Source of the DNA: Octopus sinensis
Taxonomy: Eukaryota
Assembly (NCBI RefSeq): GCF_006345805.1
Contig: NW_021826133.1
Location: 1 to 13,295, forward strand
Direction of reading: 5' to 3'
DNA: 13,295 nucleotides
Below the pieces are notes generated by a model. It saw only the letters and a list, made by a program, of their open reading frames with translations. It had not been told where the DNA came from and made no database searches. Positions 1-13,295 of this stretch are shown piece by piece. Position 1 is the first letter of the stretch. Each line of letters begins with the position of its first letter. A program made the translations under genes and the position numbers.

Positions 1-152
1 CGTGTGTGGTGTGTGTGTGTATGTGTGTGTGTGAGTATGTGCGTGAAACAGAGTGAGAGGAAATGAGAAAAAGAGACAGACAAACAGATAAGAGAAATAT
101 AGAGAAAGACAGAGAGAGAGAGTAAGACAGTGATAGGGAAAGACAAAAATAA

Positions 153-183
<31 letters not shown>

Positions 184-260
184 ATGTGTACATGCGTCCC
201 TGTTTGTGTGTGTCTATCTGTATGCATATGTGTGTGTGTGTGTTTGTGTGTGCGTGAGAT
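1..260. repeat. Compound (GT)n/(GA)n microsatellite
   Basis: Visible directly. Confidence 0.9.
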
Positions 261-419
261 GGAGATTTATACTAAATGTTGAATAGATTGATTGATATAT
301 CTGTAGCCGGGTGAAGCGGTGGAGAGATATCTACACCCATCTATCTATATTATCGTCATTAGTGCGTCCGTCGTTGTCGACGAAGACCAAAGACATCACG
401 TGAGAGATGTCTATCTCTC

Positions 420-446
420 CACACACACACTCACACGCCTCACGCA

Positions 447-492
<46 letters not shown>

Positions 493-686
493 ACACATAC
501 ATACATACACACACACATCCGAATATGTGACTAATTTTGTAATCTTTTCTGCTTTTATATATCTATATAACTATCCACACACATTAAATTATCAATCAAA
601 TTCTTCTCACACTGTCTCTTTATTCCTCTCTTTCTATCCATCTCTCTCTCCGTCTAGCTTCCGCCTCTCTCTGCACACCTACCTAC

Positions 687-733
<47 letters not shown>
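420..733. repeat. (CA)n/(TA)n microsatellite cluster with CT-rich spacer
   Basis: (TA)n at about 450-490 and (CA)n at about 689-733. Confidence 0.9.
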
Positions 734-735
<2 letters not shown>

Positions 736-790
736 ATTGAAAAGATTGGAGTCAACCAAAAGGCGTGCGGTTGGACATTTATTTTTTAAT

Positions 791-828
791 CACTACAATT
801 GTTTCCACGCAAAGTAGTTCTTCAGGTA
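791..828 (-). ncRNA. Degenerate type I hammerhead motif
   Basis: Minus strand reads TAC CTGAAGA AC TAC TTTGC GTG GAAAC AATT GTA GTG. Stem III is the palindrome ACAATTGT, stems I and II are 3 bp, and AATAAA follows at 783-778. Confidence 0.6.
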
Positions 829-1102
829 CTTGACTATGCAACTGTTTCCCTTGCAGTATGAGATCTATTTGTGCCTCGTCAGGCGATATGTAAATATTGT
901 CTCCGTAAGTTCAAAATACTCGGCTTTTTGCGGTTCAGCAAAAGAGAATGAGGTTGTGATTCACCACTCTCCCGCCCAGAAGCTCTGCCATTCAAAGAAC
1001 TTTTGGAAGCTGTCAATAATTCCCAATGTGAAAGTTCTCCAGGAGATTGGTTTCAAAGTTTGGAACAAGGCCACCGATTTCGGAGGAAGTGTGTAAATTC
1101 AT

Positions 1103-1241
1103 TCCATCGACTCCAAGTGCTCAACGGTTGCTTATTTTATCGAACCCGAAACGAAGAAGGGCAAAGCTCGACCTGGGCGGAGGACGAAGTGCCGCTTAGC
1201 AGTTTGTTCGCAGTTGGTAACAGTTCAGCGAGCTCGAGGCT
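1103..1241 (-). mobile_element. Highly diverged family-B SINE
   Basis: TTATCGAACCCGAAACGAAGAAGGGCAAAGCTCGACCTGGGCGGA..GACGAAGTGCCGCTTAGCA..AGCTCG matches the reverse complement of 7402-7565 with an internal deletion. Confidence 0.7.
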
Positions 1242-1269
1242 TTAATAAGAACTGAGAATATGTAATATT

Positions 1270-2160
1270 GATGAAAGAAAGAAAGAAGGAGGAGAAGGAC
1301 AAGTAGAAAAGGAGGGGAGGAGGAAGAAGAAGGGGACGAATGAGGAGGAGGAGAAAAATAAAAAGAGGAAGGAGGAGAAATAAGAAGTAGTAGAAGAAGA
1401 AGAAGAAGAAGAAAAGAAGAAGAAGAAGAAGAAGAAGAAGAAGAAGAGGATAAGGAGGTGGTGGTGGAAGAAGAGGAAGTGACGGAACGGGGAAGTAGAA
1501 GAAGAAGAAGAAGAAGAAGAAGAAGCAGAAGAAGAAGAAGAAAAAGAAGAAAAGAAGAAGAAGAAGAAGAAGAAGAAGAAGAAGAAGAAGAAGAAGAAGA
1601 AGAGGAAGGAGAAGAAGAATAATGTGGAGAAACAAGAAGAATGAGAATAAAAAGGAAAGCGAAAGAACAAGTAGAGGAAGAAATAAAGGTGATGAGAGAG
1701 AGCAGCAGGGGTAGGAGGAAGAGTGGACGATGAAGAAGAATTAAACAGGAAGATGATGATGGGAGGATGAGGTTGAGGGGGATGCGCATAAGAAAAGGGA
1801 AAGAAGCAAGAGATGGTGATGTTGCTGGTGGCGGTGGTTGTGGTTGTTATGTTTGAAGTGGTGACGATGTCCGTGGTTGTGGCGGGGATGGTGTGTTGGT
1901 GGGGATGCATGTGGTGATGGTTGTGGTGGCGGTAGCTGTAGGGGTGTCGGTGATTGTGGTGATAGCTATGGTTGTAGTGGTGGTGTTGGTGGTCGTCGTG
2001 GTGGTTGTAATAGTGGTTGGTGGTGGTTATGGTAGAGTTGCTGGCTCTAATGTTATTGTTGTTGCTGTTGTTGACAGTGGTGGCTCAGTTGGGGATTGTG
2101 TTGGTTGTGTTGGCCATGGCACAAGTGGTGGTGGTGGTCGAGGTTGTAGTGGTAGTAATG
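1270..2160. repeat. (GAA/GGA)n tract grading into degenerate (GGT/GTT)n
   Basis: Visible directly; source of the low-complexity ORFs. Confidence 0.92.
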
Positions 2161-2322
2161 ACGAATTTCTACATGAAGGGGTTTTTATTGACGGTATCTG
2201 TGCGAATTTACTTGATAATATTCTACGATGTTTTACCTCCGGCTATTCTTTACGGTGTAGTGTAAGGAGTGGTCCATTGAAGTACCAAAATGAATTAACA
2301 TACACACACACACACCACACAA

Positions 2323-2355
<33 letters not shown>

Positions 2356-2554
2356 ACATACAGTTATATATATATATATACAGCTACACACACACGTATA
2401 CACATATACACCCCGCATAGCTGCCACTGCTATCTTCACCACAGTAATATTTGGAGTTAATACCATTTCATGCTTATTTTGAATATAGAATTTAAATTAT
2501 ATGCATTTCTTTTATATTTCTTCAAAAACTGGTCTCTTGTATATGTACGTACGT

Positions 2555-2890
<336 letters not shown>

Positions 2891-2944
2891 TTGCAAACGG
2901 AATCCCAAAACGAACTATATATATATATATATATATATAACATA

Positions 2945-3198
2945 ATATAATATAAATATTATATAATTATATGCATATATAGATACATATATGTACATAC
3001 CTACATATATATACACATATATATGCATATATGGGTACAGGACATAAAAAAAACCTGAACACAATAAGAAACGAAAACATAAAAACAAAACCATAGAAAC
3101 GAACTTTTTTCAAACAACGAAAAAAACATTACAAGACACACAACAAAAGGAATATTCCCCTTCTTCAGTTGTCCCTGTTTCATCTACCCCGCGTTTCG
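2945..3198 (-). mobile_element. Dispersed ~250-bp repeat, copy 1 (probably Penelope-like terminal repeat)
   Basis: Reverse complement aligns end to end with 10951-11210, including CGAAACrCGGrGTAGATGAAACAG..CTGAArAArGGGAATATTCCTT and GGTTTTGTTTTTATGTTTTCGTTTCT. Confidence 0.75.
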
Positions 3199-3259
3199 AC
3201 TTCGGTTTTGGATTTGGTTTGCAAGATTCTTTACGTGAGTTCGTGTGTCTAAGCATATT

Positions 3260-3516
3260 TTGTTGTGTCTGGGGAGAGTCTTTCTCTTTTAGTGCCTTAT
3301 TATTTAACACACTCACAGGTAAAGTTTCCACTCATCTACTTATTTATTTTTCCTAAACAGTTCGTTGCGTCTTGCAACATTTTCAATAATTGTTAACGAC
3401 TATTGAATAGGTTGCAAAAACGAATCGAAAACTTTAGGAAAAATAAATAAGTAAATGAGGGGAAACTTTACCGGTGAGTGTGTTAAATAATAAGACACTC
3501 TCCCCAGACACAACAA
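3260..3516. repeat. Spacer-less inverted repeat (foldback) centred on GTTAAC 3392-3397
   Basis: 3260-3394 aligns with the reverse complement of 3395-3516, e.g. TTGTTGTGTCTGGGGAGAGT / ACTCTCCCCAGACACAACAA. The right arm lacks about 14 bp. Confidence 0.92.
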
Positions 3517-3518
3517 TG

Positions 3519-3882
3519 TGTATACATACATACATACATACATACATACATACATACATACATACATACATACATACATACATACGTACATATATATATA
3601 TATAAATATATATACGTATATGTACATATATACATATATATACATATATATATATATATATTATATATATGTATATATTATATATATATATATATGTATA
3701 TATTATATATATATATGTATGTATGTACATATATGTATAATATATATATATATCCTTCTGTCAGTTACTACTACTACTACCACCACAACACCATCACCAA
3801 CACCACCACCACTAATAATACTACTAGCACCCCAGCATCACCACCACCACCACCACCACCACCACCACCTCTACTACCACTA
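3519..3882. repeat. (TACA)n, (TA)n and (ACT/ACC)n microsatellites
   Basis: Visible directly. Confidence 0.92.
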
Positions 3883-4783
3883 TAGGCTCACGTGTGAGAC
3901 AAACCACCTGAGAATTGTCCACAACCCGGCAAAATCTACCTTAAAATAGCAAATCTTATCATTTATAATTTAAATAGAGGAAAAGCAGAATGAAAATAAA
4001 AAGCGTAATATATCCAAGATAATGGTTGAAAAACTGCATTAAACATGATAATTCCACAAATGAATATAAGAAAAGAAAAACATTTAAAACTTCACGAACC
4101 AAATTTATAAAATAAATAAATAAATATTATTTATATGATAATAATGAAAGGTATATATGTAAGTAAATCTGAAAATGCGTTTTGGCAGGTGTCAAGATTT
4201 TTTTAAAGTTTTATTTTTTAGAAAATAGAAGAAAAAATTAGCGAATTTAACTGAAATAAATTGTTAATCATTCTAAATGGCTGAAACCATATTAATGGTT
4301 TGTAATTTTTTGAAAAAAAGATTAGAGTTAATCTTTGAATCTAAATACTTGGGTATTAACACACATTTAACTTGTTTAATTACCCCTGTCGGTTATCATT
4401 TCATTGAAAAGGAGAGAAAGAAAAAAAAGCGGTTTTGAATATAATATGCGAATTAATAAACATCTGAGCCTCGAAGATAAAAGTCAGGCTCTATCCCAAA
4501 ATACCTGGCAGATGTTTTTTTTCTTTCTTTATATATTTCCGTTTCGTTTCCATCTTACCTGCATACGCAAACACAAGTGTATATATATCAATGTGTGTGT
4601 GAAAGTATTTGTGTATTAATATTTCATGTATTTGTATATTCACATGTGCATACACAAATATATGTATGAATATATAAATGTATATATAACGTACTGATCC
4701 GTGACAGAAAATTCAACAAAAATATATTCCATCTGGTGAGAGAGGAATATCATTTATTTAAACGTCACAATACATATATTAAA

Positions 4784-4836
4784 GCACTACTAATAGTTTC
4801 ATACTATGAGAGAACTCAAACATCTTATTCAGGTGC
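4784..4836 (-). ncRNA. Degenerate type I hammerhead motif (G8U)
   Basis: Minus strand reads GCAC CTGAATA ...TGAG TTCT CTCA...GAAAC TATTA GTA GTGC. Stem I GCAC/GTGC is perfect and stem III is ACT/AGT. AATAAA follows at 4758-4753. Confidence 0.65.
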
Positions 4837-4899
4837 AAACCACATCTCATAACGAACTATATGCTGCCTTCTCAGTTTTTTCGCGTTTCTTCTATCATT

Positions 4900-5013
4900 C
4901 AGTTTCTTTAGTTCGTTTTGATATGTGGTTTGAAGAATATGTTTGAGTCCTCTCAACAGTTTCTTTAGTTCGTTTTGATATGTGGTTTGAAGAATATGTT
5001 TGAGTCCTCTCAA
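4900..5013. repeat. Exact 57-bp tandem duplication
   Basis: CAGTTTCTTTAG...GTCCTCTCAA at 4900-4956 and 4957-5013 are identical. Confidence 0.95.
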
Positions 5014-5134
5014 CACATGAAACTTTCAGTATCATTTTAATATATGCATTGTGATCTTTAAATAGATAAATAATAGATAGATCGTTGGCCATTACACACA
5101 TTTTTTTCTCTCACTGTTTCTCTCCTTTTTTGTG

Positions 5135-5178
5135 TGTCCATTTCTGTAAAAGAGCGTAGGCTCGAAACGTAAAAGACA
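5135..5178 (+). ncRNA. Degenerate minimal type I hammerhead motif
   Basis: TGTC-CA-TTT CTGTAAA A GAGC GTAG GCTC GAAAC GTA AAAGACA. Stem II is perfect, stem III is a palindromic ACGT stub, stem I is bulged, and the core deviates at positions 6 and 8. Confidence 0.6.
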
Positions 5179-5270
5179 TTTATTATTCCTGAGCGTTTAT
5201 ACTAATACATCTGTTTGTTTTGTACACCACTTGTCTTCGTCTTTTGTGTTTTTCGTTCGTAACTCTCCTC

Positions 5271-5338
<68 letters not shown>

Positions 5339-5520
5339 CAGGCGAATCAAAAAAATCAAATCAAATATATGTGTGTGCTTGTGAATGTATGTGTGAGTGT
5401 GTGTGTGCTTGTGAGTGTGTGTGTGCTTGTTTGTGTGTGTGTATGTGTATAAAAACAAAACATGAAAACAACAAAAGTCAAAAGACACTCGTAGAAAGAT
5501 TAAGATGGAACAAACAGTGG

Positions 5521-5556
5521 GTGTGAGGTTTCAAGTATGTCCCTTCGTCAGAAAAG
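5521..5556 (-). ncRNA. Degenerate minimal hammerhead-like motif
   Basis: Minus strand reads CTGACGA AGG GACATA CTT GAAAC CTC. Both core boxes and a 3-bp stem II are present; stems I and III are poor. Confidence 0.4.
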
Positions 5557-5632
5557 TTAAGAGGTGAAAGTCTGAAGAAAGGAAAAGAATAGTCCGAAAA
5601 TAACCCGTGTATTGCTACATATATATATATTA

Positions 5633-6008
5633 CTAGCGTTGCTCGGGTTTGTTTCGACCCTTTAGATTTGGAATTTTTGAAAAGTAAAAATTTTGCATTT
5701 TGTAGCTTGTTATTCTCTTTAAGTTAACAATTCTCTGGTTGAAACATACCAAAAATGGCGACACAGCAGTAAAATAAAATCGTAAAAAAAAGTGATTTTC
5801 ATAGAAAAAAAAGCACCTTTTTGATGTAATTAATTTGTTGTGTTAACTTGGTCCGATTTGAATTTTTCTCCTACGGAAGGAAGAGCAAGCCTTTTTCTAT
5901 CATATTCCCAATTTTGGTTAACTTGCGCCGCAGGGTTTCGGAGGAGATTGTGTTAGTTGTAGGCTACCAAACCTGCCACACACAGACAACTTCAGCTTTA
6001 TATATATA
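5633..6008 (-). mobile_element. Non-autonomous Helitron-like element
   Basis: Minus strand starts TATATATATAAAGCTGAAGTTGTCTGTGTG, resembling Helitron 5' ends (terminal TC not preserved). It ends CCCGAGCAACG-CTAG followed by T. The subterminal GC hairpin appears half-deleted. Confidence 0.6.
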
Positions 6009-6174
6009 TTTCGGTAGAACGTGAAATAATTCGATTTTAGAAATGGATCTCCAGTGTACAAGAATTTATTACGAATTTCTTTGCCGGGCTTGTAATATAC
6101 TTTCCCTGTGACACTAAAGCAAAGACAACATTCCGTATTATATGAGAACGGTGACTCATATACATACATACCAT

Positions 6175-6617
6175 AGGCACAGAGGTAGCTGTATGGTAAC
6201 TAGCTTGCTTACCAACAACATGGTTTCGGGTTAAATCCCACTGCGTGGCACCTTGAGCAAGTGTTTTCTACTATAGCCTCTGGGCCTACCAAAGACTTTT
6301 GAGTGGATTTGGTAGACGGAAACTGAAAGAAGCCCGTCGTATACATATATATATATATATATATATATATGTGTATTTGTGTGTGTGTGTGTGTGTGTGT
6401 ATGTAAGTGTTTGTGCGTCTGTGTTTGTCCTCCCACATCGCTTGACAACCGATGCTGGTGTGTTTACGTCCCCGTAACCTAGCGGTTTGGCAAAAGAGAC
6501 CGATAGAATAAGTACTAGACTTACAAAGAATAAGTCCTGGGGTCGATTTGCCCGACTAAATAAGGTGCTCCAGCATGGCCACAGTCAAATAAGTAAAATA
6601 AGTAGAAGAGTAAAAGA
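6175..6617 (+). mobile_element. tRNA-derived SINE (family A) with internal (TA)/(TG) microsatellite
   Basis: A-box-like TAGCTGTATGGT 6186-6197, B-box-like GGTTAAATCCC 6229-6239, then GGCACCTTGAGCAAGTG and an A-rich repetitive tail. Resembles an abundant octopus SINE from memory. Confidence 0.8.
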
Positions 6618-6665
6618 CGAAAAGAGTATATATATTTATATATACACGCACATATATATATATGT

Positions 6666-6707
<42 letters not shown>

Positions 6708-7139
6708 ATATATACATATACATATATATACAATACACACACACATTTTGTAACCCAAGCTGTTATATTTAATTTGTTCATTCGCAAAATTGCCTCTCTC
6801 TCTCTCTCTCTCCCTCTCTCTACATATATGTAAATGTAGTATGTATACACGCATACACATCTCTCAATATATATATACATATATTTATATATGTGTATAT
6901 ATATATATGTATATATATTTATATATATATTTACATATATATGTGTAAATATTTATACACACCCGCATACACACATGTTCATGTGCATATATACATATCA
7001 AATACTAAAAAAATCCGAAGGATTTGCTTTATCTCATACATATTTATTTCTCTCTTAATTCTGGATTTCATTAATCCTGCGTCTTCCGTCCATTAGTTCA
7101 ACGTTTAAATAAATTATCTGATTGGCTCAGGTTCCTATG

Positions 7140-7290
7140 AAATATCCTGTTTGAAGTTGCGCAATATGCTAGATATAGCAGTTAAATTTCCATTGAATGT
7201 ATGTCGGGCATTGGAATATCGTTAAATCTAATATTGCTGAATTATAGCTGACCTGAGGCTAAATAACAGCAACAGCAGCAGCAACGCAAC
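7140..7290 (+). mobile_element. Possible decayed 3' end of another SINE/LINE
   Basis: Ends GCTGACCTGAGGCTAAATAACAGCAACAGCAGC with a short CAA/CAG tail. Recognised from memory only. Confidence 0.3.
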
Positions 7291-7359
7291 CACCAAATGA
7301 AGCAGATCGTGCGCGCACGTGATAGAGAGAGTGGGGAGCTAAGGACTCAGTAGAGGAGC

Positions 7360-7767
7360 TACATCCACCTCAGTGCTGAACCGGTACTTATTTGATCGGA
7401 GGGCGGCGAGCTGGCGGAAGCGTTAGTATGTCGGGCGAAATGCGTAGCCGTATTTCGTCTGTCGTTACGTTCTGAGTTCAAATTCCGTCGAGGTCGACTA
7501 TGCCTTTCATCCTTTTGGGGTCGATAAATTAAGTACCATACCAGTTACGCACTGGGATCGATATAATCGACTTAATCCGTTTGTATGTCCTTGTTTGTCC
7601 TCTTTGTGTTTAGCGCCTTTTGGGTAGTAAAGAAATAGGTACTTATTTGATCGTCCTCGAAATGACAGCAAAGTTATCACGCTGGAATGGGAAATCTGGA
7701 CGTAAAGACGGACGAAATGCTGCTAAGCATTTTCTCAGCATGCCAACGATTCAACCAGCTCGCAGCC
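7360..7767 (-). mobile_element. Older antisense family-B SINE split by the 7399-7637 insertion
   Basis: 7638-7767 (GACGGACGAAATGCTGCTAAGCATTT...CCAGCTCGCAGCC) is a diverged reverse complement of about 7402-7537. Its continuation is 7360-7398. Confidence 0.8.
7399..7637 (+). mobile_element. tRNA-derived SINE (family B), full length, with 16-bp TSD
   Basis: A-box-like TGGCGGAAGCG 7412-7422 and B-box-like GAGTTCAAATTCC 7474-7486. TSD GGTACTTATTTGATCG at 7383-7398 and 7638-7653. Confidence 0.88.
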
Positions 7768-7860
7768 TTATATCGCTGGCAGCCTCATATATATATATTA
7801 TCGCTATGGACTACGTGTGGGCAGTCATCTAAAAGTTTTTGTTCGTCATGATGCTGACAT

Positions 7861-7965
7861 AAGTTCCTTGTCTTTCCTGATGAGAAGGCGGCATAATGCA
7901 CCCTTTATTCCGTCGGAATTGAGAATATGCAGTCTTCGAAACATATGTCGAGTATAAAGGAATTT
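7861..7965 (+). ncRNA. Type I hammerhead ribozyme, canonical core
   Basis: CTGATGA 7877-7883. Stem II GAAGGCGGCATA (7884-7895) pairs with TATGCAGTCTTC (7926-7937), 11 of 12 pairs including one G-U. GAAA 7938-7941. Minimal stem III lies in the palindrome ACATATGT. GUC triplet 7947-7949. Stem I is TTC/GAG, an internal loop, then AGTTCCTT (7862-7869)/AAGGAATT (7957-7964). Confidence 0.88.
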
Positions 7966-7997
7966 TGTTAAATCGTCGTTCGACTCCATTCTTTCAT

Positions 7998-8015
7998 TTA
8001 TATATATATATTATA

Positions 8016-8049
<34 letters not shown>

Positions 8050-8062
8050 ATATATATATATA

Positions 8063-8116
<54 letters not shown>
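7998..8116. repeat. (TA)n microsatellite
   Basis: Visible directly. Confidence 0.95.
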
Positions 8117-8119
<3 letters not shown>

Positions 8120-8640
8120 CTGGCCAGATTGGATCAATCTCAAGAATAACCAGCCGAAATTGTGAGGATAATCTGGTGCTGATTAAATAAGGCAAGCTTC
8201 GAATGACACGTCCTTGTTGTCTTCGTATCGTCTATCTGTATATTTTGTTGTCCCTTTTTGTGTCACCTAGTTGTCCGCATGCTTTGCGATCTTGTCCCAT
8301 TTTGTATTTTATATATATACACATATATATATAAAATTAGGAAAAAAACACCTTTTATTAATTACCATCTAGAAAATTACATATAATAGGAAAATTAAAA
8401 TTAAAATTACAATAAAATTTAAAGATTAAGTAAATTGCAAAAAATAATAATAAAAAAGTATATAATAGGTAGAAAAATAAGTTTGGATTTTATTCCTTCA
8501 AACAATAATTATATATTTATATATTTATATATATCTATATAACGGCGTACGTACACTCTGTTCTCTCATATATATATATATAATATATATATAGATATAT
8601 ATACTATATATATATATATATATATATCTATATATATAAC

Positions 8641-9186
8641 TTTTCTGTAGAGAAAAAAACTTCATCTTATATTAATAGTAGACTTATTACTACTCGCTAT
8701 AGGGACCGGTAACCACTATAACCTGTAGTGGCGAACAGTCAACACGTTGTATTGAGGCTGACCTAAGAATTTTTATTTCTAGATATAACTGGGGTACTTA
8801 AATGTACTCATGTTTTTTGCTTCGTCTTTTTCCATGAGCGCATGTAAGTATCTTATTTATATTCTCTCGTAAGCTCTACTGAAGAGGAATAAGTCTTTTA
8901 TGAGATTAATTCCGAAATTTATTCAATATAGAGATAACGAATTTTTAGAAATTCTAACGGCCAGCTTGCCCGACTTCAGTTCTTCGATTTTTGCTGTAGC
9001 GAGTATATTATATGTGGAAATTGACGATTTAATAGTCTGTTATCAGCATATTGGCTTTGAAATAATTTTCTTTAGCCCTTACTTATAAGTTGTTTATAAT
9101 TTTAACCGTAAAGGTATTTTAATATGCTGCCACATTTCCTCAGGGAATTTTTTTCTTAGAGAAAAAAACTTCATCCTATATTAGTA

Positions 9187-9189
<3 letters not shown>
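8641..9189 (+). mobile_element. ~510-bp HHR-containing unit with terminal direct repeats between (TA)n tracts (Penelope pLTR- or retrozyme-like)
   Basis: TAGAGAAAAAAACTTCATCyTATATTArTAGTA occurs at 8648-8680 and 9157-9189 (31/33 identical), each preceded by TTTTCT. Internal HHR at 8867-8940. (TA)n on both flanks. Confidence 0.55.
8867..8940 (+). ncRNA. Type I hammerhead ribozyme, canonical core
   Basis: CTGAAGA 8879-8885. Stem II GGAAT/ATTCC plus AGTCTT/GAGATT with a TTAT loop. GAAA 8914-8917. Stem III ATT/AAT with a TATTC loop. AUA triplet 8926-8928. Stem I CTCTA (8874-8878)/TAGAG (8929-8933), an AAG/ATA internal loop, then TCGT/ACGA. Confidence 0.88.
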
Positions 9190-9226
<37 letters not shown>

Positions 9227-9319
9227 TATATATATATTATGATATATATATATCGGCAAGAGTGTTCCTTAGCATTTAAAATTATGCTTTTGCCCAAATT
9301 TGTATTTTGAAAAGACTCA

Positions 9320-10950: not shown

Positions 10951-11210
10951 CCTTCGAAACACGGAGTAGATGAAACAGAGGCGACTGAAAAAAGGGAATA
11001 TTCCTTGCGTTGTATGTCTTTTACTCTGTTTTTTTCGTTGTTTAAAGAAATGTCCGTTTCCTTGGTTTTGTTTTTATGTTTTCGTTTCTCATTGTGTTCG
11101 ACGTTTTATTTTTTTTAGTGTCCTGTACCTATATATGCATGTATATATATACATATAGATGTAATTACGTACATATATGTATGTATATATGCATATGTTT
11201 TATTTATATT
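10951..11210 (+). mobile_element. Dispersed ~250-bp repeat, copy 2
   Basis: Homologous to the reverse complement of 2945-3198. Begins directly after a (TA)n tract. Confidence 0.75.
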
Positions 11211-11213
11211 TTG

Positions 11214-11219
11214 TTATTA

Positions 11220-12010: not shown

Positions 12011-13143
12011 CAGTGGGGGGAAATAAATATTCGTAAATGTCAAAATTCTTTATTTAATTTCTAATGAACATAAATGGGATATACCAATACTATATTTGCA
12101 TACATATGCATAAACTAAGAATATGCAAAAGAAACTAATACATAATTGTAACTAATGAATTTATATACAATTATAAATATTTAGGGGTGAAAAAAGTATT
12201 CGTATAGAATAAATTTATGATATTCTATGCCACAAAATGCTGTTAAAATATTTTTTTTACTAGAACTTACTCGTTTGTTCCAATAATCTTATCAGTTGTC
12301 ATTTTTAAGTGTCAAAACACTAGCTTCTTCATTCAGCATTGAGACAACATAAAGTAGTATCCAATTAATGGCGAAAAGTAAAGAACACACAAATTCAGTG
12401 AAAAACTTATTTATTGAACACTGGAAAGCAGATAAAAGTCACAGGAAAATATCAGAGACCCTTTGTATTCCATTTTCTATCGTATCTTCATTTATTCAAA
12501 AATATAAAAAATCGGGACAGAATAAGATCTGGTGCACCACGCAAGATTTCCCCTAGATCTTTAAGAAAAAATGAAGCGAAGAATCGAAAATAACGCAATG
12601 ATCACCAGAAAGGAGTCGCAAGAAGATTTGCTAACTTCAGGGACTACTGTTACACTATGAACAATCAGCAAGAACTTCATAGTAATGAACTGAAGTCACG
12701 CTCTCCATGAAAATATCCGCTGTTGACTCAAAAGCATAGAGATGCCCATTTAAAATTTGTTTATGAACATAAAGATAAATCTGATACATTCTGGGAAAAT
12801 ATTCTATGGACAGACGAGTCGAAAATTGAATTGTTCGGACGAAATTCGAATAGCCATGTTTGGAAGAAAGATCGTACCGCCTATTCGCCGAAAAACGCAA
12901 TTCCTACCGTAAAGTTTGGAGGTGGCACCATTATTGGTGTGGGGGTGTTTCTCTGCTAATGGTACTGGCAATTTACATGTGATAGGTTGTAGAATGAATG
13001 CAGAGATGTACCAAAATATTTTGATCAATAATTTATGGGACTCCAGCTTTGTGAAGGGTGGGTTTTACAACAGGGTAACGACCCTAAGCACACGGCGAAG
13101 TCTACCAAAAAATGGATTGTCGTTCACAGTATAAAATTATTAT
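12011..13143 (+). mobile_element. Decayed Tc1-family DNA transposon, left IR/DR end plus most of the transposase
   Basis: TA|CAGTGGGGGGAAATAAATATTCGTA at 12011, a similar inner repeat GGGGTGAAAAAAGTATTCGTA at 12184-12204, and transposase remnants downstream. Right end not in the window. Confidence 0.9.
12368..13143 (+). pseudogene. Tc1-like transposase pseudogene (frameshifts, stops, second catalytic D changed to G)
   Basis: N-terminal HTH (SHRKISETLCIPFSIVSSFIQKYK), GAPRK (GRPR-like), ILWTDESK with the first D at 12813-12815, TVKFGGG/VWGCFS, and QQGNDPKHT with GGT at 13074-13076. Cut by SINE sequence before the SPDLNPIE motif. Confidence 0.93.
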
Positions 13144-13295
13144 TCCGTTTGTATGTCCTTGTTTGTCCCCTCTGTGTTTAGCCCCTTGTGGATAATAAAG
13201 AAATAGGTATTTCGTTTGTTTTCACGTTCTAAGTTCAATTTCCGCGAGGTCGACTTTGCCTTTCATCATTTCGGGATCGATAAATTAAGTACGCA
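13144..13295 (+). mobile_element. Family-B SINE fragments in permuted/tandem order, interrupting the Tc1 transposase
   Basis: 13144-13209 matches 7576-7641 (3' end). 13207-13295 matches 7450-7536 (internal part). Runs off the window end. Confidence 0.85.

Follow-up and report, generated by a model that had tools for sequence, protein, structure and literature searches.

A type I hammerhead motif in a 509-bp non-coding repeat of Octopus sinensis, a likely non-LTR retrozyme inserted in (TA)n

Metazoan non-LTR retrozymes are described as AT-rich units without open reading frames, each with one type I hammerhead; they occur as monomers, dimers and short arrays and are found together with Penelope-like elements (sections of PMC7229834 and of bioRxiv 10.64898/2026.07.22.740005). 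Sizes given in these sections are 170–400 nt for the RNAs (PMC7229834) and 51–972 bp for the units (bioRxiv 10.64898/2026.07.22.740005). Hammerheads also reside in the pLTRs of Penelope elements, where a minimal motif has a long helix II and a palindromic helix/loop III suited to dimers. The accounts cited here report partial tandems, an inverted 5' arm, end extension and a microsatellite target for Penelope-like elements (PMC4209133; PMC8557442), with an end offset of 30–40 bp (PMC8557442). Formation of dimers via a palindromic loop 3 is established for animal type I hammerheads in the relevant parts of PMC4209133 and PMC7229834. Schistosoma Sm-alpha and CChMVd(-) exemplify a tertiary contact in which U1.7 interacts with the last A of a loop located 4 bp into stem II (excerpts of PMC11875169 and PMC2632901).

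The window analysed here comprises 13,295 nucleotides (contig NW_021826133.1 of assembly GCF_006345805.1) and represents animal DNA rich in microsatellites. It contains a type I hammerhead motif within a protein-free, (TA)n-inserted repeat with a unit of 509 bp (Table 1). The reading that we favour with reasonable confidence is that this repeat is copied, most likely in trans, by a Penelope-type RT/endonuclease, and that a private change in stem III is predicted to weaken cutting by the window copy. Like the described metazoan non-LTR retrozymes, the repeat lacks ORFs, is AT-rich, has a single type I hammerhead per unit, shows the same range of array sizes and is accompanied by Penelope-like elements. 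It differs from these accounts in the two-part stem II, the 4-bp stem III and the prevalence of dispersed, two-armed (TA)n insertions. The long helix II, the palindromic stem III and all the insertion traits named above are likewise shared with Penelope-like elements. Compared with the minimal pLTR motif as presented in those accounts, the octopus motif has a full stem III, a structured loop I and no extra base before stem II; its end offset is 91–96 nt, and no linked ORF was found among the examined loci. As in the excerpts on Schistosoma Sm-alpha and CChMVd(-), U1.7 follows a stem I of 5–6 bp, and a loop situated 4 bp into stem II has an A on its 3' side. The Schistosoma hammerhead combines internal loop 1 with apical loop 2 and CChMVd(-) apical loop 1 with internal loop 2, whereas both loops would be internal here, a combination that does not occur in these excerpts.

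Table 1. Positions of the insertion, its hammerhead motif and related features in the window.
Feature	Position	Strand	Basis
Whole insertion, 1.08 units of the ORF-less 509-bp repeat	8641..9189	+	direct repeat, genome copies
Remnant of preceding unit, 5'-truncated (partial tandem, pLTR-like)	8641..8680	+	
One full unit	8681..9189	+	alignment ends
Second fixed end, at which the other arm stops in two-armed insertions	9093..9098	+	alignment ends
Left (TA)n tract, insertion target	8568..8638	.	sequence
Right (TA)n tract, insertion target	9190..9253	.	sequence
Type I hammerhead ribozyme motif	8867..8940	+	sequence, descriptor, covariation
Hammerhead core C3-A9, CUGAAGA	8879..8885	+	sequence, descriptor
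Two-part stem II	8886..8913	+	alignments
G12-A15.1, stem III, AUA triplet; predicted cut after 8928	8914..8928	+	sequence, descriptor
U private to the window copy (family: G)	8920..8920	+	distinct-row comparison
U1.7, likely partner of A8909 in a putative stem I/stem II tertiary contact	8935..8935	+	conservation
62-aa ORF, spurious	8900..9088	+	

All required core nucleotides (C3-U4-G5-A6-N7-G8-A9, G12-A13-A14, A15.1-U16.1 and H17) were present in the motif, with GAAA at 8914–8917 as G12-A15.1. Stem I is formed by pairs 8867–8870/8937–8940 and 8874–8878/8929–8933 with AAG/AUA in between, stem II by 8886–8890/8909–8913, an A.A mismatch and 8892–8897/8902–8907 (two G-U pairs) capped by the loop UUAU, and stem III of the window copy by 8917–8919/8925–8927. 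The cleavage-site triplet is A8926-U8927-A8928. The three helices, which are backed by covariation, and the open helix I assign the motif to type I. A type I descriptor applied to both strands of the window matched only once, at this motif, and none of 1000 dinucleotide-shuffled windows contained a match. The folding z-score of the motif was -2.6, with 4 of 200 shuffles being equally good. The Rfam search of the window returned no hammerhead match at the gathering score or at E ≤ 10, which is likely due to the long stem II; the five Rfam matches obtained at E ≤ 10 were chance matches to AT repeats. The AUA triplet was kept in 55/58, 23/23, 14/14 and 3/3 core-intact copies of four groups. The core, the stems and the triplet can be read directly where a preliminary description of this DNA had placed them, and comparison of genomic copies confirms the motif as a genuine hammerhead at the sequence level.

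A DNA search of the genome revealed at least 82 matches to the repeat among 40 scored of 2480 candidates, the top full-length copies being 85–94% identical to the window repeat. The exact hammerhead pattern occurred at 262 places in the genome versus none for a control pattern, which puts the copy number at 262 or more. A second pattern gave 429 matches versus 10 for its control, the former number including overlapping double counts and other families. Local duplications of 0.7–7.5 kb carry whole insertions (L119 at C1:207.47 Mb, L003/L004 and L101/L102), so that copy counts are inflated. Besides subfamily A, to which the window copy belongs, we distinguished subfamily B (68% identity over 435 nt), family C with a unit of about 495 bp and copies 95–98% identical (loci L164–L193), and family D with four pattern matches (L091–L093 and L106). 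Families C and D share the two-part stem II, the AUA triplet and a self-complementary stem III. The A group of core-intact copies also took in two loci that are unrelated. Relatives of 85–99% likeness were also seen in contigs from four sequencing runs, which show neither ends nor strand. A further type I hammerhead, with a long insert in stem II and a perfectly palindromic stem III of 12 nt, is located at L097:4179–4278 on the minus strand.

The near-family alignment comprised 60 copies, five of the original 65 rows having been excluded because their flanks were truncated or rearranged; about half of these loci had been collected with a pattern that fixed stem III. A core base was lost in 15 of the 60 rows. 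The stem I pair 8874/8933 was U-A in 40 copies and C-G in 18, and the stem II pair 8888/8911 was A-U in 48 and G-C in 11. In a set of 37 rows (19 A, 18 B) picked by hand from 98 core-intact copies, with A rows dropped where redundant and five B rows dropped as well (three of these had insertions), 14 of 23 pairs changed on both sides, versus at most six for slid controls. Most of the covarying cells stem from the single divergence of A and B and, therefore, count as few events. All three stems covary across the subfamilies, which is the outcome of a check among paralogues that the preliminary description had set beforehand. Since the distal pairs of stem I are among those that covary, the extended stem I proposed there (5+4 bp with a 3×3 internal loop) is real.

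Stem II of the family consists of 4 bp, an A-rich 2×2 internal loop (8890–8891/8908–8909) and a hairpin of 5–6 bp; the last pair of the 5-bp distal hairpin covaries too. The 5+6-bp stem II reported earlier is present in the window copy but does not describe the family, in which U8890 closes a fifth pair in 17 of 60 rows only. In family C, there are 3 bp plus U.U instead. All 98 core-intact copies of the four families have U at position 8935 (U1.7), and 95 of them have A at position 8909, adjoining the 4-bp stem II. The earlier suggestion that the stem I internal loop touches terminal loop II is not supported: this loop is 11 bp away from the core, and the A of the described contact is only 4 bp out. 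By analogy with the described systems, the putative contact likely involves the A-rich internal loop of stem II and would thus join two internal loops, one of stem I and one of stem II. A more tentative proposal, which we regard as possible but doubtful, is that in several hammerhead families of this genome the stem II internal loop docks on that of stem I while compensatory changes keep a fully paired stem III self-complementary through its loop. The ribozyme would then be weak as a monomer and strong as a double hammerhead, and would cut multimers but spare unit circles. Neither cephalopod retrozymes nor hammerheads of such a build were the subject of any paper retrieved by our literature search; the supplement of PMC7229834 may list such families.

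The 3-bp stem III of the preliminary description proved to be a peculiarity of the window copy rather than a family trait. Among the distinct rows collected by overall similarity, position 8920 was U in the window alone and G in all 33 others; with this G-to-U change, stem III loses its fourth pair and the strand is no longer self-complementary. The family strand, AUUG-AUU-CAAU, forms 4 bp with a self-complementary loop and is a near-palindrome. Its computed self-duplex energy is -6.7 kcal/mol versus +2.2 kcal/mol for the window version. In subfamily B, 13 of 23 copies have AUCG-GUC-CGAU, with a self-duplex of -13.9 kcal/mol. Stem III is self-complementary through the loop in 11 of 16 copies of family C (-11.2 kcal/mol) and also in family D (-9.2 kcal/mol), for which the evidence comes from three loci retrieved with a pattern that put no constraint on stem III. 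The bases flanking the central U of loop III are unable to pair in a hairpin but able to do so between two hammerheads. This dimer-only pair was A-U in 18, G-C in 16, G-U in one and unpaired in two of the 37 rows, a covariation that amounts to essentially one event between the two subfamilies (chance about 0.29). Because these dimer-only loop positions covary (A-U/G-C), the family is likely dimer-capable, although a 4-bp stem III could also function as a monomer. The private U8920 could be an assembly error; a search for a second copy of the window locus, allelic or an empty site, yielded none among 40 scored of 10481 candidates, the flank being repetitive.

The preliminary description took the window copy for a canonical hammerhead that may be active as a monomer; in the corresponding rival reading, the copy cuts efficiently as a monomer through contacts between stem I and loop II. 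The core of the copy is intact, stems I and II are predicted to form with probability >0.9, both U1.7 and A8909 are in place, and most invertebrate retrozyme hammerheads dealt with in the cited part of PMC7229834 cut well as monomers with a helix III of 2 bp. However, in the predicted minimum-energy fold (-19.9 kcal/mol versus -14.2 kcal/mol for the hammerhead fold) stems I and II are kept while the core UGAA (8880–8883) pairs with UUCA (8922–8925), replacing stem III. With U8920, the computed cost of adopting the active fold rises from about 3.4 kcal/mol to a penalty of 5.6 kcal/mol, as compared to 2.3–3.7 kcal/mol in 14 intact copies of subfamily A. The penalty alone is a weak argument, since it is 2.8–12 kcal/mol in subfamily B copies and 4.9–8.7 kcal/mol in four diverged A copies and thus spans the value of the window copy; the folding model also ignores tertiary contacts. 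In addition, U8890 is able to pair with A8909, and eight of nine Xenopus retrozyme dimers are given as showing no cutting at 6 mM Mg2+ in the section concerned of bioRxiv 10.64898/2026.07.22.740005. The window copy has lost the capacity to dimerise and is predicted to cut poorly, so that activity as a monomer is doubtful; an efficient monomer appears unlikely to us.

The preferred reading, a weakened hammerhead within a mobile repeat, takes into account the enclosing 509-bp unit, which the preliminary description overlooked while recognising the motif itself. The insertion is 5'-truncated and has a single arm and a single hammerhead, which is bracketed by a direct repeat (8641/9150, spacing 509). 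The main 3' end of the unit at 9189 reads ...UAGUAGUA and is followed by (TA)n; the second fixed end lies at the offset given above. Among 139 distinct alignment ends, 86 mapped to 9180–9191, a bin inflated by the end of the query at 9190, 33 to 9087–9101 and 20 elsewhere. The 86 ends were followed by a microsatellite in 51 cases, by the next unit in 20 and by other sequence in 15; 30 of the 33 ends in the second bin were followed by a microsatellite. Ten of 11 two-armed insertions, in which one arm is inverted, use one end per arm. Head-to-tail tandems of the family, in arrays of two to three units, were found at loci L007/L017, L013, L023 and L054. The family thus has two defining traits of non-LTR retrozymes, a short unit that is non-coding and contains one type I hammerhead, and an occurrence in head-to-tail tandems. 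The window copy, with its 1.08 units and one ribozyme, lacks the two ribozymes of an 'active' retrozyme. The family also displays 5' truncation, partial tandems, an inverted 5' arm, end extension and a microsatellite target. The ORF overlapping the hammerhead had already been suspected to be spurious and is so: its ATG plus at least 55 aa are kept in 5 of 51 copies, and the 62-aa product has no match in Pfam. Taken as a whole, the repeat is likely a non-LTR retrozyme mobilised by Penelope-type elements.

A somewhat less probable alternative, which we also consider unlikely, is that the unit is not an independent retrozyme but a terminal repeat (pLTR) that stands alone and belongs to an autonomous Penelope-like element. 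According to the passages used from PMC8557442 and PMC4209133, numerous 5'-truncated pLTRs that carry hammerheads are left behind by such elements, and our screen for an autonomous element scored 150 of 5029 GIY-YIG candidates and examined 57 loci. No element with the 509-bp unit as its terminal repeat was detected in these 30 GIY-YIG loci and 27 fetched stretches. At 20 junctions of tandem copies, moreover, the 3' end runs directly into the next unit with no intervening ORF, and the ORF lists of the repeat loci contain no adjoining RT/GIY-YIG ORF. The sole Penelope-like element near a relative of the repeat (L108) has a (TA)n of its own, at which it stops 450 bp earlier. The only clear hammerhead matches beside GIY-YIG loci (L108/L119 and L115/L130) turned out to belong to subfamily B and family C and to have been inserted separately. 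Two further hammerhead matches beside such loci were weak (E 0.06–0.09). Least of all do we expect the window hammerhead to have been domesticated for a host function, an extremely improbable case that has the intact core and nothing else in its favour, given that the 13-kb contig comprises repeats only, with no gene recognised, and that the destabilising private change sits in the very copy in question.

With regard to the enzyme required by a Penelope-mobilised retrozyme, the genome carries intact Penelope-like elements of 775–781 aa with RT, Cys-linker and GIY-YIG (L107:1253–3592, L108:1032–3374, L109 on the minus strand and L194–L223). One RT + GIY-YIG family (781 aa) is inserted in (TA)n and its 3' ends are 99–100% identical across 40 scored copies; therefore, this family must be very young. 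The presence of intact elements that insert in (TA)n means that a mobilising enzyme is available. No relationship to the repeat emerged at the termini of the 781-aa family: their likeness, including a 12-nt likeness and a 3'-end likeness, was at the level of shuffles (635/1000, 589/1000 and 321/2000). Its two ends are roughly 35–40 nt apart, as judged by eye, versus 91–96 nt in the 509-bp repeat.

Several other features were noticed in the window. Two copies, 81% identical, of a repeat of about 260 bp are located at 2942–3199 (minus strand) and 10954–11217 (plus strand); in this repeat GAAAC precedes CUGAAGA, which reads CUGAAAA in the 10954 copy. Overlapping CUGANGA ... GAAA motifs occur on both strands at 5545–5600 (+5572 and -5551) with no descriptor match, and are possibly minimal hammerheads of another Penelope remnant. 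A high-copy SINE-like repeat that includes inverted pieces is present at 7360–7770 and 13140–13292 and is 81–89% identical to many genomic copies. A broken transposase of the Tc1/mariner type extends over 12368–13134 (Sleeping Beauty HTH match with E 1.3e-8, below the cut-off). At 3260–3516 there is an imperfect inverted repeat, the two arms of which measure about 83 nt each and are 88% complementary.

The proposed life cycle of the repeat would begin with transcripts of tandem source arrays, which may be cut after AUA in each unit. Cutting would proceed best in a double hammerhead held together by pairing between two stem III strands, each self-complementary, and probably assisted by the contact between U1.7 and the A of the stem II internal loop. 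The resulting unit-length RNA, possibly circular, could then be reverse-transcribed at nicked (TA)n sites by a Penelope-type enzyme. This step would yield 5'-truncated copies of more than unit length, which then would decay. The window copy, with one ribozyme only, can neither release a unit nor form a dimer in cis, and it may represent a dead-end insertion in neutral decay.

The 509-bp repeat adds one retrozyme family of an already known kind. Its subfamilies differ by compensatory changes at dimer-only positions while the two-part stem II is kept; therefore, natural sequences are suited to assays of both the dependence on dimers and a contact between the internal loops of stems I and II. This case also illustrates that a lone genomic copy can mislead about the fold of its family.
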